DNA of 64,000 bases, taken from positions 160,001-224,000 of the forward strand of contig OZ240241.1 in the NCBI GenBank assembly GCA_965198115.1, written 5' to 3'. The notes below the pieces were generated by a model. That model was given only the letters and a program-made list of their open reading frames with translations, ran no database searches and had not been told where the DNA came from. Position 1 is the first letter of the stretch. Every line of letters begins with the position of its first letter. The position numbers and the translations under genes were made by a program. The stretch comes from Candidatus Latescibacterota bacterium (GTDB taxonomy: Bacteria; Latescibacterota; UBA2968). Of the stretch, positions 54,739 through 63,124 are shown in pieces.

Positions 54739-56183
54739 GGAGCTCAGGTCAATAGGTGTGTAAAAGAAATCAGGCGGCCATCTTCCCGGCTTCGACCTGC
54801 GGTCCGGTTGAGTGTTTCTGATCGTAGACTTGTTGTAGCAAGTGTGGCGCGGTGAGTTTCCTGAATCGGCTCTCTGCGACCTTGAGCGTACGCCAGATGA
54901 GAGTCGTGGCGTTCCTGACTTTCTTGAATCGCCTGGCGGCGTTTGTGCGAAGCCGAACGGAAGCAAAGGGGCTCTCGACGACGTTCGTGGTTCTCAGGTG
55001 TTTCCAGTGTTCCTTCGGGAAGTCGTAGAACGTGACCATCCGATCCCAGTTTCTTTCGAGCGTCTCCACGGCGGCAGGGAACTGTGAGCGATACCGTGCG
55101 GCAAAGCGTTTCCGGAGCTTCTCGGCCTCCTTTTTCGTGCCGGCATAGGGGATCTGGACGAGCAGTGCGCGGGCTTCAGCCTGTGCACGCTTGGCGACCT
55201 TGTCGAGCACGTTGAGGATCTTGTGGTTCCAGCACCGTTGTTGCCGGCTCTCTGGCCAGACCTGATCAACGGCCGCCCAGATGCCCATATTCCCGTCCGC
55301 GGCGATCAGGACAGGATGTTCGAGCCCGCGATCCCGGAGATCCCGGAGCACCGTGAGCCAGGATTCTGTAGACTCTCGATAACCGGGTTCTATCGCCAGG
55401 ATCTCCTTGCTGCCGTCGCTCATCGCGCCGATCACGACCAGCAGACACGCCTTCTCGCGCTCGAGCCCGGCTTTGACGTAGATGCCATCAGCCCAGGCGT
55501 AGACCAGTTCGCGATTATCCAGACGCCTTTCTTTCCAGTCCTGGAAGTCGACCTCCCACTTCCCTCGAAGACGAGCGATCGAGGTCGGCGAAAGCGGCGC
55601 GCCATCACCGAGCAGCGCACGCAAAGACAACTCGAAGTCGCCCTGGGAGAGACCGTGGAGATAAAGGTCGGGAAGCAGATCTCCAATGGCCCTGGTTCTC
55701 CGGGCGAACAGGGGGAGGATGCGGCTTTCAAACCGCTCTTCCAGACCACGAACCCGGGGACGCCGGACCTTGATCGTTCCGCAGCTCGTCGAGAGACGCC
55801 GGGGCTTGCCGTAGCCGTTCCTGTAGCCCCTGGAGCTATCGACCTCGGCTCGGCGCTCATACCACGACCGGCCCAAGAACGCGGTCGCCTCCTCCTCCAG
55901 AATGGACTGGAACCGGCCCTGGATCTCTTCACGGATCCAATCGTCAACCGTCTCCCACGTCGGCATGGACTTCAATGGGGCTCTATGCGTATGTTCCTTC
56001 ACGGCGATCCTCCTTCCCAACCGGGCCTCTCACCCGGTTTTGTGTGAATCAACTATCTCACGGGACTCACCGCGCCACACTTGCTACAACAAGTCTACGA
56101 TCAGAAACACTCAACCGGACCGCAGGTCGAAACCGGGAAGATGGCCGCCTGATTTCTTTTACACACCTATTGACCTGAGCTCC
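54739..56183 (-). mobile_element. IS256-family element bounded by 119-bp inverted repeats
   Basis: 54739..54857 is the reverse complement of 56065..56183 with one mismatch; no target duplication. Confidence 0.88.
54770..56002 (-). CDS. IS256 (Mutator-type) transposase
   Basis: YRNGY, LYLHGLS, WADG, ADG, QRCWNH, LRTTNVVES; GTG start after AAGGAGG. Confidence 0.93.
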   Translation of the reverse strand: MKEHTHRAPLKSMPTWETVDDWIREEIQGRFQSILEEEATAFLGRSWYERRAEVDSSRGYRNGYGKPRRLSTSCGTIKVRRPRVRGLEERFESRILPLFARRTRAIGDLLPDLYLHGLSQGDFELSLRALLGDGAPLSPTSIARLRGKWEVDFQDWKERRLDNRELVYAWADGIYVKAGLEREKACLLVVIGAMSDGSKEILAIEPGYRESTESWLTVLRDLRDRGLEHPVLIAADGNMGIWAAVDQVWPESRQQRCWNHKILNVLDKVAKRAQAEARALLVQIPYAGTKKEAEKLRKRFAARYRSQFPAAVETLERNWDRMVTFYDFPKEHWKHLRTTNVVESPFASVRLRTNAARRFKKVRNATTLIWRTLKVAESRFRKLTAPHLLQQVYDQKHSTGPQVEAGKMAA

Positions 56184-57092
56184 GGTGAGGCCGAACTCGT
56201 CTACGTGGTGGACGTTCACGGGCCGTCGGCGAAGTCGCTAGCGGAAGAGTACGGGTCCAAGGTCACCGATTCCGCTGGGGCACTGGGGGATCCAAGCGTG
56301 GACGCTGTTGTCATTGCGTCGTCGACGGACACGCACCTCGATCTGATTCTGGCTGCGATAGAGGCCGGGAAGCCGATTTTCTGTGAGAAGCCGGTCGATC
56401 TCAGCCTCGAGCGGGTGGATGAACAGATGGACGCGATCGAGGCGGCTCCTGTTCCCGTCCTGATCGGGTTCCAACGGAGATACGACAGACATATCAGCGG
56501 TGTCAAAGCAGCGATCGACGAAGGCCGACTGGGCGATGTTGAAGTTGTGAAGATCACGAGCCGCGATCCTTCCCCGCCACCGATCGAGTACATCAACGTC
56601 TCGGGCGGGCTGTTCCGTGATATGATGATCCACGATTTCGATCTGGCACGATGGCTTCTGGGTGAGGAGCCGGTCGAGGTGTGTGCGTTGGGAAGCTGCC
56701 TTGTGGAGGAAACCATCGGTGACGCTGGGGACATCGACACGGCAGCCGTGACGATGAAGACGTCATCGGGCAAGCTCGCGCAGATCGACAACAGCCGGCG
56801 CGCCACCTACGGCTACGATCAGCGTGTCGAGGCGTTCGGATCGAAAGGGATGGCGCGAGCGGAGAACGTGCCGACGACGACGGTTGAAGTCTGGGATGCC
56901 GTCGACGTGGCGCGAGAGAAGCCGCCCTACTTTTTCCTTGAGCGATACGCCGATGCCTATCGAGCCGAGTTCGATCACTTTGTCGACGTGGTGAAGGGAG
57001 TCGCAGAGCCCGCCGTGACCGTTCGTGATGGGCGGCAGGCCCTGGCGTTGGCCGGTGCAGCGCTAACCTCGTCGAGTCGGGGCGAACCGTGA
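56184..57092 (+). pseudogene. iolG: Inositol 2-dehydrogenase (IolG-like), 5'-truncated
   Basis: CEKPVD, GFQRRYD, ITSRDP, GGLFRDMMIHDFD, YGYDQRVE, FFLERY; N-terminal GxGxxG missing. Confidence 0.82.
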
Positions 57093-58708: not shown

Positions 58709-59407
58709 TTCCGTCTCGTTCGGCGTGTCGAACTGCCGATTCCGACACTGGCTGGGTGGACTGTCATCGCTGCGTGTGTGGGAATGGCATCGATCGTGTT
58801 CATCGGAACGATCTATCCATTCTTGGCCGTGAACCAGCCGATCGGGTCGGGTTCGTTGGTCGTCGAAGGTTGGATGAACCGGACAGACGTGCTCGAAACG
58901 ATCGCATTGTTTCAGCGGGGAGACTACGAGGGGATCTATACCACGGGTGGCCCGGTTTCTGACGGATCCTATCTTTCGCTTCTCTACCCGACACATAAGA
59001 CTCTGGCTGAGATTGCTGCTCATCAGTTTGTGGTGGCAGGGGTCGCCGACGACAGAGTCACGGCTGTTCCCCGGGGTTCTGTCACCCGGAATCGCACTTA
59101 TTCCTCAGCGCTAGCCCTGCGATTTCGGCTGGTGGCTGATGGACTCGACGGTTACCGGCTCGATGTTCTATCGAGCGGTCCTCACGCGAGGAGATCCTGG
59201 CTTTTGTATCAAGCAGCGCTTAGGGATATCGCTGACGTGGGAGTTAAGTCTCTCCCTCCGACCTCCTACGACTCGAATCGGTGGTGGATGACGAGTTCGG
59301 GATTCCGGACCGTGATCTCCGAATGCATCGCGTACTGTTACGCGAAGTTCCTGTTCTATCCGGATGTAGAAGGGGACATTGCCAAATTGCGGCGTAACCC
59401 AAATTGA
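58705..59407 (+). CDS. YdcF/DUF218-like membrane protein, possible 5' frameshift
   Basis: PTLAGW plus TM, LVVEGW, TTGGP, RTYSSA, GPHARRS, RWW.SS.GFR.VISE; GTG 58705 is one base out of frame. Confidence 0.72.
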
Positions 59408-59416
59408 GGACCACTT

Positions 59417-59495
59417 ATGGACAAGGGATATGCCAACCCGCAGCTGCTCTGGTCCGCAGAGCAACTTAGCGATCGGCTGGGGGACGAGCATCTTA
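59417..59495 (+). pseudogene. Rhodanese/sulfurtransferase 5' fragment, interrupted by IS630
   Basis: GAGGA RBS; MDKGYANPQLLWSAEQLSDRLGDEHL joins in frame to RIVDAR after the IS. Confidence 0.88.
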
Positions 59496-60757
59496 GTGCA
59501 TGGGTTCATAAATATTATTACGTATGTTCTGAACATTATTTGTAGCTTATGTTCTCCTTCAAAAGGAGGAGAACAATGCCAAGACGTTCGCCTTATGTGG
59601 TGCTACTGTCTGAGAAGGAACGGGTCGACCTCGAGCGAATGGCTGGACAATATACGTTACCGTATTATCAAGTGATCCGATCGAAAATCGTGCTTCTCGC
59701 CGCCGAGGGATTATCCAACAAGATTATCGCCCAACGGTTGGATGTCCCGCGTCCGATCGTAAGCAAATGGCGTAAGCGCTTTTTCGAAGAGCGTCTTTCG
59801 GGACTCGAAGATAGATCTCGTCCCGGGCGCCCGCCCGGTTTTCCCCCCTCAGGTGGTCGTTCAGATCAAGGCGCTGGCGTGTGAACTACCGAGCGAGAGC
59901 GGGATACCGCTCTCGCGGTTCAGCTGTTCCGAGATTGCCGCCGAGGCAGTGCAAAGGGGCTTCGTTGCCAAGATCAGCGGCGCCACTGTCTGGCGCTGGT
60001 TGAACGAGGACGCGATTCGTCCTTGGTATCATCGTTCCTGGATTTTCCCACGGGACCCGGACTTCCAAACCAAAGCAGGTAGAGTCCTTGATCTGTATCA
60101 CCGCCAATGGCAAGGAAAGCCTTTAGGGCCGAGGGAATATGTACTTTCTGCCGACGAAAAGACCAGTATTCAAGCACGAGCTCGCAAGCACGTTACCCTA
60201 CCGCCAGCCTCGAACAGAGCGGCACGCGTTGAAACACGAATACGAGCGGAAAGGAGCCCTGGCCTATCTGGCTGCTCTCGACGTGCACAATGGTCGAATC
60301 TTCGGTCTCTGTGAGTCTTCTTCGGGTATCGAGCCCTTCAACCGGCTCCTGAGCCTGATCATGAGCCGGAAACCCTATTGCTCGGCAAAGAAAGTCTACC
60401 TCATCGTGGATAATGGCTCCTCGCACCGAGGGCAAACATGCATCGACCGTATCCAGGGGAAGTGGCCAAACATCCACCCCGTTCACCTTCCGATCCACGC
60501 AAGCTGGCTCAATCAGATCGAGATCTACTTCTCGATCCTCAAACGCAAGGCTCTGACACCTATCGAATTTGCATCGCTCGAAGAGCTTGAGGCAAGAATC
60601 CTCGGTTTTCAGGAACGCTACGGACGTATCGCCACACCCTTCAAATGGAAGTTCACACGAACAGATCTCGCGGAGATGATCGACAAACTCAGGTTCTACG
60701 ATACGCCCTTGGCAAAGTCTGCTTAGAATACGTCACCGTATTTGCGAACAGGAGTAC
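59496..60757 (+). mobile_element. IS630-family insertion sequence
   Basis: Imperfect IRs (A)GTGCATGGGTTCATAAATA / TATTTGCGAACAGGAGTAC(T); inserted at CTTAG with (T)TA duplicated. Confidence 0.9.
59576..60726 (+). pseudogene. IS630 transposase: HTH orfA plus DDE orfB, with an extra frameshift
   Basis: KWRKRF..RPGRP, likely programmed shift at TTTTCCCCC (~59840), SADEK, DNGSSH, SWLNQIE; extra A at about 60234 breaks VEHEYER. Confidence 0.88.
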
Positions 60758-61509
60758 TTAGGATCGTGGACGCGCGTCCGCTTCAGGATTATGTCGAGGG
60801 CCATATTCCCGGCGCGATCCACCTGGACGTCTATGGCATCAGCCTCAACGATACGTCGGACGAACCGTTCAACGCGTTCATGTGGATGTATGCCTATCTG
60901 TTTGGCAGCCGAGGGATCGGATCGGACCAGACGATCGTCTTTTATGGCCAGAATTCCGATATGCGGGCCGCTCGGGCGTTCTGGGTTTGCGAGTACCACG
61001 GGCACGGAGATGTGCACGTGCTCGATGGCGGCTATGGTGCGTGGATGGCCGATGGGTATGAAACGTCGACGGTGTGCGAGAACGCAGAGAGTACTGTGTT
61101 CGAAAGCCAGGCAGAACCAACCTGCGCGATCGGCTATCAGGAACTGTTGGACTCGCTGAGTCGTGACCACTTCGTTCCACTCGACACGAGAAGCGAAGGT
61201 GAATACACGGGGGAAACGGTTCGGGCGGCACGAGGTGGGGCGATTCCGGGTGCAGTGCACATCGAGTATGTGAACAATCTCGATGATAACGGTTTCTTCA
61301 AACCCGCGGACGAACTCCGGATGATGTATGAGCGTGCGGGTGTGATGCCGGAACAGACCGTCGCCTGCTACTGACAGGGCGGCTACCGCTCTTCCCACAG
61401 CTACCTGGCGTTGCGGCTGATCGGTTACGAGAAAGTTCGCAACTACATCGGCTCGTGGAAGGAGTGGGGGGATAGACTGGAGTTGCCAGTCGAGAAACCG
61501 AGAGGCTGA
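60758..61509 (+). pseudogene. Two-domain rhodanese (TST/MST) 3' part with in-frame TGA at the catalytic site (putative Sec)
   Basis: GHIPGA, LDGG, DTRS..EYTG, GAIPGA, VACY-TGA-QGGYRSS...[12 protein letters not shown]; frame stays open to TGA 61507-61509. Confidence 0.88.
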
Positions 61510-61736
61510 AGGCACCAAGAAAACATTCCACACGAAGGCGCGAAGAGATTGTGGGGGAGCAGTCTCTGACTGAACTTCTGTCGGTCGACGAAAGATCAGT
61601 CGGCGGTCGGCGGTGCGCTGTGGGCGGAAGAGACGGCTTCGCCCCTGTGAATTTTTGCCAATTGCGTGTCCAAAAGAGGAGTGGCAGGTCGTCTTAGTGT
61701 ACTGGCTGAGCATATCCGGATGAAGATGGGCTGACA

Positions 61737-62006
61737 ATGCCGACGGTTTCCTTTACCCAGAATATTCAGCGTCACATCGCCTGCCCGACGATGGAAGTTA
61801 GTGGATCGACGGTGGGGGAGGCCCTGTCAGCCGTTTTTGAGCAGATTCCGAAAGCGAAGGGGTACGTACTCGACGAGCGAAGCGCGGTACGTCGGCATAT
61901 GGTGATTTTTGTGGATGGGGAAGGCATTTCGGATCGAAACGGGTTGAGCGATCCGGTGCGGGCGGATTCGGAGATTTATGTGATGCAGGCTCTTTCTGGA
62001 GGTTGA
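61737..62006 (+). CDS. MoaD/ThiS family ubiquitin-like protein
   Basis: 89 aa; TVGEAL, IFVDGE, C-terminal ALSGG. Confidence 0.92.
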   Translation: MPTVSFTQNIQRHIACPTMEVSGSTVGEALSAVFEQIPKAKGYVLDERSAVRRHMVIFVDGEGISDRNGLSDPVRADSEIYVMQALSGG

Positions 62007-62008
62007 GT

Positions 62009-63124
62009 ATGAGTGATCGACTACTCGTGGGGACGCGTAAGGGTTTGTTTCAGATAAAGCGATCGAGTTCCGGTTCGTGGGAAATCGTTGACAGAGACTT
62101 CCTGGGCGACAACGTGAACATCGTCGCGGCTGATCCACGCGAGGGGCAGGTTTTCGCCAGTCTGGATCACGGGCATTTTGGAACGAAGCTGCATCGATCG
62201 AGGGACGATGGGAAGTCGTGGGAAGAGATTGAGGTTCCCGAGTATCCGGAGCAGCCTGATGGATGGGAAGAGATTCCGAATCCGTTCACGGGGAAAGTGG
62301 CGCCGTGGAGTCTCCATATGATTTGGTCCATCGTTCCGGGATTGTCGACCCAAGCGGGCCGTGTCTGGTGCAGGACGATTCCCGGGGGACTGTTTCAGAG
62401 CGATGACGCCGGGGACAGTTGGACGTTCGTGCGATCGCTTTGGGACCTCGATGAACGAAAGTCGTGGATGGGGGCGGGAACGGACTACGCTGGGATCCAT
62501 TCGATTCTGGTGGATCCGCGAGACGAGGATCACGTGACGGTGGGTGTCAGCGTCGGGGGAGTCTACGACAGCGCTGATGGCGGCGCGTCGTGGCGAGCCA
62601 GGTGCGACGGGATGAGGGCGGAGTACGTGCCGCCCGAACAATCGGAAAACCCAGAGGTCCAGGACCCCCATTACGTCGCCCAATGTCAGGACGATCCGGA
62701 TACACTTTGGGCGCAGCACCATAACGGGGTTTTCGTGACACAGAACGGGGGCGATCAATGGAGCGAGATCGAGAAAATCGATCCTTCAACTTTCGGCTTC
62801 GCGGTGGCAGTTCATCCACGGGACGGCAATACCGCGTGGCTCGTTCCGGGTGTGAAAGACGAACACCGAATTCCGGTCGATGGGAAGCTGGTGGTGACGC
62901 GCACACGAGATGGAGGGAAGACGTGGGAGAAGCTCTGGAAGGGGTTACCGCAGGAAGACGCCTACGACCTGGTGTTTCGGCACGCGCTCGACGTGGACGA
63001 ATCGGGCGATCGTGTTGCGTTCGGGTCGACGACGGGGAATCTATGGATTTCGGAAAACCAGGGAGATGACTGGTCTCAGGTCTCCGGGACGCTGCCGCCG
63101 GTCTATTGTGTACAATGGGGATGA
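62009..63124 (+). CDS. BNR/Asp-box beta-propeller (sialidase-like) protein
   Basis: LLVGTRKGLF; S.D.G.SW repeats; QDPH, QHHNG, STFGF; no signal peptide. Confidence 0.88.
   Translation: MSDRLLVGTRKGLFQIKRSSSGSWEIVDRDFLGDNVNIVAADPREGQVFASLDHGHFGTKLHRSRDDGKSWEEIEVPEYPEQPDGWEEIPNPFTGKVAPWSLHMIWSIVPGLSTQAGRVWCRTIPGGLFQSDDAGDSWTFVRSLWDLDERKSWMGAGTDYAGIHSILVDPRDEDHVTVGVSVGGVYDSADGGASWRARCDGMRAEYVPPEQSENPEVQDPHYVAQCQDDPDTLWAQHHNGVFVTQNGGDQWSEIEKIDPSTFGFAVAVHPRDGNTAWLVPGVKDEHRIPVDGKLVVTRTRDGGKTWEKLWKGLPQEDAYDLVFRHALDVDESGDRVAFGSTTGNLWISENQGDDWSQVSGTLPPVYCVQWG

Follow-up and report, generated by a model that had tools for sequence, protein, structure and literature searches.

A 64,000-nucleotide stretch of the genome of a Candidatus Latescibacterota bacterium (NCBI GenBank assembly GCA_965198115.1, contig OZ240241.1, positions 160,001 to 224,000 of the forward strand; hereafter the window, whose numbering is used unless another contig is named) carries a two-domain rhodanese gene of the SseA/COG2897 type that is split by an IS630-family element and probably inactive. 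The gene very likely specifies selenocysteine (Sec) at its catalytic position, the probable recoding signal being a split SECIS: a hairpin about 100 nt distant would be brought beside the UGA by a predicted long-range helix. Comparative sequence analysis gives this reading a probability of roughly 0.7. The selenoprotein family is known, having been predicted since 2005; new here are the proposed architecture of the recoding signal and its likely shifted register in this genus.

The gene begins at an ATG at 59417, behind a Shine-Dalgarno-like GAGG (59406-59409, + strand), with a 5' piece of 26 codons plus 2 nt (59417-59496, +) homologous to the N-termini of intact orthologues, and resumes beyond the insertion with a 3' piece (60762-61509, +) that includes the stop codon. 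The initial annotation had the gene extend over 60758-61509 only and was thus too short. Its claim that the frame stays open for 44 codons past 61374, where the ORF called from 60742 ends, is borne out when TGA is translated as U, the frame then running to the TGA at 61507-61509. Its placing of the earlier TGA (61372-61374, +; motif Y-U-Q-G-G-Y-R, the inferred Sec codon) at the catalytic cysteine agrees with alignment to the catalytic Cys of the Thermus rhodanese 1UAR and of mycobacterial SseA 3HZU. Removal of the IS in silico yields a product of 275 aa, with the TGA as codon 231 and no further lesion. This protein contains two PF00581 (rhodanese) stretches (Pfam, E 2e-34) and matches the NCBIfam SseA model at 105.6 bits, below the model cut-off of 250; a structure model of the congener's protein has pLDDT 93 and a TM score of 0.87 to 1UAR. 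At one position of the rhodanese C-terminal signature the window copy has Ile and orthologues have Ile or Val, where the PROSITE pattern presumably has D, E, A or P.

Short-read contigs (two runs of one sample) do not differ from the window at any base of 60732-61395 or 61440-62100, and since the TGA and the distal hairpin described below both lie inside these stretches they are not assembly errors. Around the UGA (61322-61435) contig depth rises from ~10 to ~500 through near-identical DNA of other organisms, which is consistent with nucleotide-level conservation there. The gene order amidase, DUF218, rhodanese, MoaD-like, BNR is unbroken in the congener (G001), where the rhodanese gene is intact. 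The neighbours give no pointer to the substrate, no cluster of named function (sulfatase, amidase, EVE, aminotransferases) being found at more than 25 of 80 loci; the largest neighbour cluster (66/80 loci) has as its representative a frame antisense to the rhodanese gene itself. A sulfur relay with the downstream MoaD/ThiS-like gene was rejected, such a neighbour being present at only 2/80 loci.

The structural evidence comes from 77 Sec genes and 80 Cys genes that align without gaps, drawn from 200 loci less duplicates and 3 that were too short; positions marked + are counted from the base that follows the UGA. The 5' strand of the long-range helix (+12..+21; 61386-61395, + strand) begins 11 nt after the UGA and pairs with a 3' strand at +83..+93 (61457-61467, +), closing a looped-out domain of 82 nt; all 10 pairs are present in 71/77 Sec genes vs 1/80 Cys genes. 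Beyond it lies the distal hairpin region (+97..+117; 61471-61491, +), the candidate SelB-binding element, in which +97..+103 pairs with +111..+117. In the register used by the family, seen in 75/77 Sec genes, this hairpin has 6-7 bp, a UGGANYU loop and a folding energy of -9.5 to -13.1 kcal/mol. Among the 71 distinct Sec rows 97.2% of cells are paired, as compared to 35-49% in slid controls, and the cells changed on both sides number 71 vs 22 in shuffles (0/500 as good). Four pairs are compensatory: +15:+90, +18:+87, +99:+115 (a Val/Ile switch) and +100:+114. These four also have the highest mutual information of the 35 Sec column pairs retained by a pairing filter, and in the Cys set no column pair rises above 0.15. 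On a tree of the protein upstream of the codon the four pairs show shared changes in 4/6, 3/5, 3/3 and 4/4 cases, against a background with mean 0.19 and 95th percentile 0.50, in which 55 of 1500 pairs reach 0.6 and 3 reach 0.75; the sequences are phylogenetically related, and only 3-4 shared changes stand behind each compensatory pair.

Both helices also come out of RNAalifold without prompting, and on the same alignment the program finds no conserved structure inside the looped-out domain. The mean ensemble probability of the long-range helix in Sec genes is 0.85, rising to 0.99 when +1..+8 are left out, vs 0.01-0.05 in Cys genes; the window sequence +10..+121 itself folds with this helix (z -3.7). 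Variable pairs break down in the Cys genes: +15:+90, for example, forms in 40/80 and +19:+86 in 4/80. In 15 Cys genes hand-picked for lying near the Sec clade or for having Ser-Ser, roughly half of the rows or more lose the variable pairs, yet many bases are fixed by the protein and 75% of cells therefore remain paired. Two Cys-type genes (L132 and L130) keep much of the helix strand or distal hairpin sequence and are possibly recent Sec-to-Cys reversions. A search of Rfam at four rhodanese loci returned no family at the structure. Taken together, the covariation makes it very likely that both helices are a real, selected RNA structure.

That the distal loop binds SelB is a further step, judged likely from the behaviour of the loop sequence: its CTG codon never varies among the Sec genes (77/77) but does among Cys genes, and the published G[G|U] pattern is matched by the loop. 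Covariation shows structure and not binding, so that the UGA could encode Sec while the helices serve to pause the ribosome, to shield the UGA from RF2 or to stabilize the mRNA, with SelB bound elsewhere, for example in the looped-out domain. Such an arrangement would accommodate the window and congener genes, both of which break the distal stem of the family, and the weak near hairpin that occurs at a spacing of 35 in 13/77 Sec genes. It is unlikely, however, given the invariance of the loop codon and a looped-out domain that is devoid of conserved structure in the alignment fold. A near hairpin at about +24..+45 was also tried as the SECIS and rejected, its folds being clade-dependent, without covariation and missing from the alignment fold; near hairpins of -7.5 kcal/mol or better are absent from all 77 Sec genes, the 13 referred to above being found at -4.

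In the preferred reading, i.e. SelB delivery by the distal hairpin, a ribosome with the UGA in its A site would cover about the first ten bases and thereby remove the proximal hairpin (+2..+18) that can form directly behind the codon. The +12..+21 strand would then pair with +83..+93, looping out the 82 nt, and the G-containing distal loop would come to lie ~21 nt from the UGA in the family (11+3+7 = 21 nt, with the 82-nt domain skipped) or 24 nt in this genus along the unlooped path, there to be bound by SelB-GTP-Sec-tRNA for insertion of Sec. The element could exist only if transcription ran more than 117 nt ahead of the ribosome under coupled transcription, and this was counted against it. 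The comparison set of 11 other TGA read-through candidates of the genome (10/11 matching redox families in Pfam; picked by eye from noisy genome-wide read-through scans, with a twelfth near-copy left out) and selD have near hairpins with loops at 16-21 nt, so that SelB in this organism normally meets canonical spacing, and the rhodanese has no way of matching this except by the loop-out. Rhodaneses of the TST/SseA type carry sulfur as a cysteine persulfide, and by analogy the intact enzyme might shuttle sulfane sulfur via an enzyme-bound selenenyl-sulfide in place of the Cys persulfide. More generally, the alignments lend somewhat better than even support to a natural class of bacterial SECIS that would act at a distance, in which a helix within the coding region would exclude 82 nt as a loop and so present a SelB-binding hairpin from 100 nt downstream, SelB would read spatial and not linear spacing, and the hairpin would be evolvable enough for one genus to have re-formed it in a shifted register.

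The window and congener genes are the 2 exceptions among the 77, each having an A-A mismatch at +100:+114 plus one further break. The window distal region instead folds four bases over, at 61475-61491, with 6 Watson-Crick pairs around an AGUUG loop (61481-61485); the congener has AGUUA, and the shifted folds reach -7.9 and -7.1 kcal/mol, respectively, vs 0 and -1.7 in the family register. The G of the shifted loop comes from a GAG codon found in 3/77 genes (window, congener and one sister genus), and the shift predates the IS, given that the congener has an intact gene. A further selenoprotein candidate gene in the same genome (L258, whose protein lacks a family match) likewise has an AGUUG loop, at 21 nt, and a UGGAU loop occurs in L261 of this genome, outside the minimum-energy fold. 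Taken alone, the shifted register is matched by 7-10% of synonymous redraws and is seen in two related genomes only. The comparison tips slightly toward a distal hairpin that in this genus has moved to another register and gained a new AGUU(G/A) loop, the rival being simple decay of the stem.

The insertion that splits the window copy at codon 27, and so leaves no intact reading frame in this genome, is a 1260-bp IS630-family element (59497-60756, +) flanked by CTTAG target repeats at 59492-59496 and 60757-60761; besides the repeat on both sides, the frame is restored across the IS and the gene order is intact in the congener. Features of IS630 are evident in the HTH and DDE_3 transposase, short terminal inverted repeats, a TA-containing target with its repeat, and multiple copies (60 full-length, 99.4-100% identical, among 96 BLAST pieces in the 8.43-Mb genome). 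The transposase (59576-60726) lies in three overlapping frames, one or two being usual, and each piece scores under the NF033545 cut-off because of this division. Unlike the family at large, the element uses CT(A/T)AG as target, and left and right 5-mers are equal in only 31/60 copies; 18/60 read CTTAG on the left and CTAAG on the right, and several copies have a common left flank. These flanks may reflect a TA repeat within CTTAAG, or recombination between IS630 copies in what appears to be a recent burst. Long frames cross fewer IS630 sites (16-25/60, depending on the join rule) than random sites (218/300). On the minus strand at 54770-56020 is a second transposase-like ORF, IS256-like by eye, that appears to cut the 5' end of an oxidoreductase gene (55902-57092).

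The insertion in the rhodanese gene is taken as recent because the IS-free frame has no other lesion. No contig joint skipping the IS was found among contigs of three runs; as such contigs lose rare variants and extend no more than 25 bases into the element, this was given no weight. This rhodanese copy is quite probably inactive; the initial annotation, almost certainly right in its reading of the UGA, had thus treated as the finding a gene remnant interrupted by IS630. It is improbable that the copy, its family correctly read, still yields a shortened selenoprotein from GTG 60766. The right end of the IS does supply an AGGAG 11 nt before this GTG, the gene caller starts a 202-aa protein there, the catalytic domain would be intact in a product lacking the first 29 residues, and the 3' piece is free of further lesions. 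One weak promoter-like site is present at 60652-60680, but such sites are near chance (3 found vs 1.6 expected), the residues lost take in the first strand of domain 1 as well as a helix, and with so recent an insertion the lack of decay is uninformative.

The stem-loop that the initial annotation described directly behind the TGA is indeed present, one base after it (AGGGCGG-CTA-CCGCTCT, +2..+18; 61376-61392, +), and is foldable, but its proposed role as the SECIS is not sustained and is very improbable. Alone it folds at -9.7 kcal/mol (z -1.9, with 8/200 shuffles as good), only 0.9% to about 2% of 2000 synonymous redraws fold as well, and all 7 pairs form in 43/77 Sec vs 1/80 Cys genes. However, its CUA loop begins 8 nt after the UGA and lacks a G, and it has 0 compensatory pairs in the 71 distinct Sec rows (500/500 shuffles equal). 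The Sec-specific constraint falls on the 3' arm, which is the 5' strand of the covarying long-range helix, the two structures being mutually exclusive. The 5' arm is no better kept in Sec genes (+3 is paired in 65/77 Sec vs 74/80 Cys genes, +6 in 70/77 vs 64/80). In Sec genes the mean ensemble probability of this hairpin is 0.10 for free mRNA, falling to 0 without +1..+8, and in fdhF the corresponding lower stem comes apart on the ribosome (PMC4513850).

That the UGA encodes Sec in this rhodanese family, as first proposed from the window, is almost certain on comparative grounds. Orthologues at 59-75% identity have TGA at the column in 37/40 cases, the window included, and TGC or TGT in 3/40 (a match was found in 40/41 related genomes; 42 loci were examined, and two distant Cys paralogues at 33-34% identity were dropped). 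The best 80 of 323 GTDB matches comprise 65 TGA and 15 Cys forms, and the best 80 of 523 metagenome matches 11 and 69; in all three sets every locus without TGA at the column has TGC or TGT. Among the GTDB matches the TGA form is present in Latescibacterota, Poribacteria and one Nitrospinota record, the nearest relatives being mostly Candidatus Latescibacterota. A class-wide search found a match in 54/132 genomes, 49 of the 54 with one TGA, and in 0/76 genomes of one family (f4) at E 1e-60. The source genus has only two GTDB members; three close proteins (P0005-P0007) are 75-81% identical to that of the congener. A quickly built protein tree (155 rows, with 2 left out) requires at least 6 switches of the Sec/Cys label, 3 of them forced by starred branches. 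Of 119 other top protein matches, 24 end exactly at the UGA codon, i.e. public gene calls cut Sec rhodaneses there. One orthologue (L057, G019:C241) lies over two frames in its MAG and yet keeps the TGA and both helices.

The genome also has the machinery that the initial annotation suggested looking for, with selA and selB adjoining tRNA-Sec (selC) and a selD with a TGA of its own, and its SelB has winged-helix domains; the situation that would have pointed to a nonsense mutation, i.e. no machinery and only TGC or TGT in orthologues, is thus not what is found. Among the 41 related genomes selA and selD are each present in 40; one selD (L069, in G003) has two in-frame TGA codons vs one in the other 39. 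In 44 further genomes selA occurs in 28/29 TGA carriers and 12/15 Cys carriers, so that the machinery is required but does not discriminate. Reading of the UGA as Cys or Trp by a special tRNA or reassigned code, or its being a plain nonsense mutation in a dead gene, was rejected as exceedingly improbable: the gene is broken in this genome and SECIS-dependent UGA-to-Cys tRNAs exist in some bacteria (PMC13582414), but intact orthologues in three phyla retain this TGA, tRNA-Sec is the sole tRNA with a UCA anticodon among the 74 called, Trp codons 28 and 31 are TGG in 77/77 Sec genes, and the terminal stop alternates between TGA, TAA and TAG among orthologues.

The same genome holds selA, selB, a WAxxUGC-type selenoprotein gene and tRNA-Sec in one cluster (L264, C1 3,585,303-3,590,000) and at least 11 further candidate selenoprotein genes (L252-L263), including peroxiredoxin/thioredoxin-like, UGSC and ArsC types; L258, with the motif T-U-G-V-C, has no Pfam or NCBIfam match, and L252, L255 and L256 look like truncated or frameshifted copies. 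At C1 2,870,558-2,872,531, 20 tRNA genes, all in the same orientation, form an array of a kind typical of mobile elements.

By sequence comparison, made with the Sargasso fragments, the window gene is a member of the known, predicted COG2897 selenoprotein family. Three COG2897 rhodanese selenoproteins are given in the Sargasso paper (PMC1088965), two reviews carry the family as COG2897 or form 4 (PMC9312934, PMC13188914; the latter with the UxxG motif) with MQG53192.1 and MCY3690685.1 as form 4 reference proteins, and a COG2897 Sec rhodanese is also counted in Olavius symbionts (PMC1976440). Features of form 4 are present here: two tandem PF00581 domains, UGA at the catalytic Cys with UxxG, Sec/Cys homologue pairs and host machinery. 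Likeness to the Sec rhodanese family extends to widespread Cys homologues, and likeness to the Sargasso genes to Sec at the catalytic column and, in two supplement sequences, a Y-U-Q-x-G-x-R loop. However, the two Sargasso sequences continue with R-A-A-H and show by eye a hairpin of the ordinary kind, its stem 5-6 bp long and its CGGCG loop 16 nt behind the UGA, whereas the window lineage continues with R-S-S-H/Q and has no such hairpin but a predicted long-range structure instead, the window copy being in addition split by the IS. The Thermus 1UAR protein, M. tuberculosis CysA2/CysA3/SseA and A. vinelandii RhdA share the fold and the catalytic column; unlike these two-domain Cys sulfurtransferases, to which it is ~30% identical, the window family has Sec for Cys and a QGGYR loop.

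In the bacterial SECIS consensus, as outlined in one review (PMC13188914), the apical loop lies 16-37 nt after the UGA with a G in its first two positions; the canonical criteria used here were a 4-16 bp stem, a 3-9 nt loop, G within the loop's first two positions and an MFE of -7.5 or better. Neither rhodanese hairpin lies at canonical spacing (8 nt for the proximal, more than 100 nt linear for the distal), and the CUA loop of the proximal one departs from the consensus as well. The distal hairpin has canonical stem, loop and energy in 75/77 Sec genes and in the window (-7.9, AGUUG), with the congener just short at -7.1. The upper stem-loop of E. coli fdhF starts 11 nt after the UGA (PMC8659212). 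The rhodanese element resembles it and canonical SECIS in its short stem, G[G|U] loop, first helix at 11 nt and predicted effective spacing of 21-24 nt; it differs in a loop at +104 to +111 linear that needs the 82-nt looped-out domain, and it escapes searches of the bSECISearch type, whose windows span 40-60 nt. A 3'-UTR SECIS was reportedly engineered in E. coli by Su, Li and Gladyshev (2005), an indication that a UGA-displaced SECIS can direct Sec insertion in a bacterium; in contrast, the putative element here is natural, lies in coding sequence and is kept by synonymous and Val/Ile covariation. The literature searched, mostly outside subscription journals, contained no natural long-range bacterial SECIS, and the Sargasso figures and BSepDB per-family tables could bear on the point. 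Atypical SECIS elements are acknowledged, as uncharacterized, in deep-Sep and BSepDB (PMC12013277, PMC13326102), the latter placing canonical elements in 87.4% of entries and calling the rest (12.6%) uncharacterized; the review cited above notes a subset of selenoprotein genes that fits no SECIS model (PMC13188914), and a 2026 hydrogenase study examined only 40-60 nt downstream of the UGA (PMC13582414).

The gene itself is of modest value, with its family long predicted and this copy probably dead; the recoding signal matters more, since it gives one of the cases without a SECIS model a covariation-backed structure, with specific pairs to break and restore. If the proposed architecture is true, SECIS searches need windows beyond 60 nt, and such elements could explain part of the 12.6% of catalogued bacterial selenoprotein genes that lack a canonical SECIS. 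For the rhodanese family it would mean that Sec is placed without recoding residues right behind it, which suggests how an active-site loop incapable of forming the hairpin may still become that of a selenoprotein.
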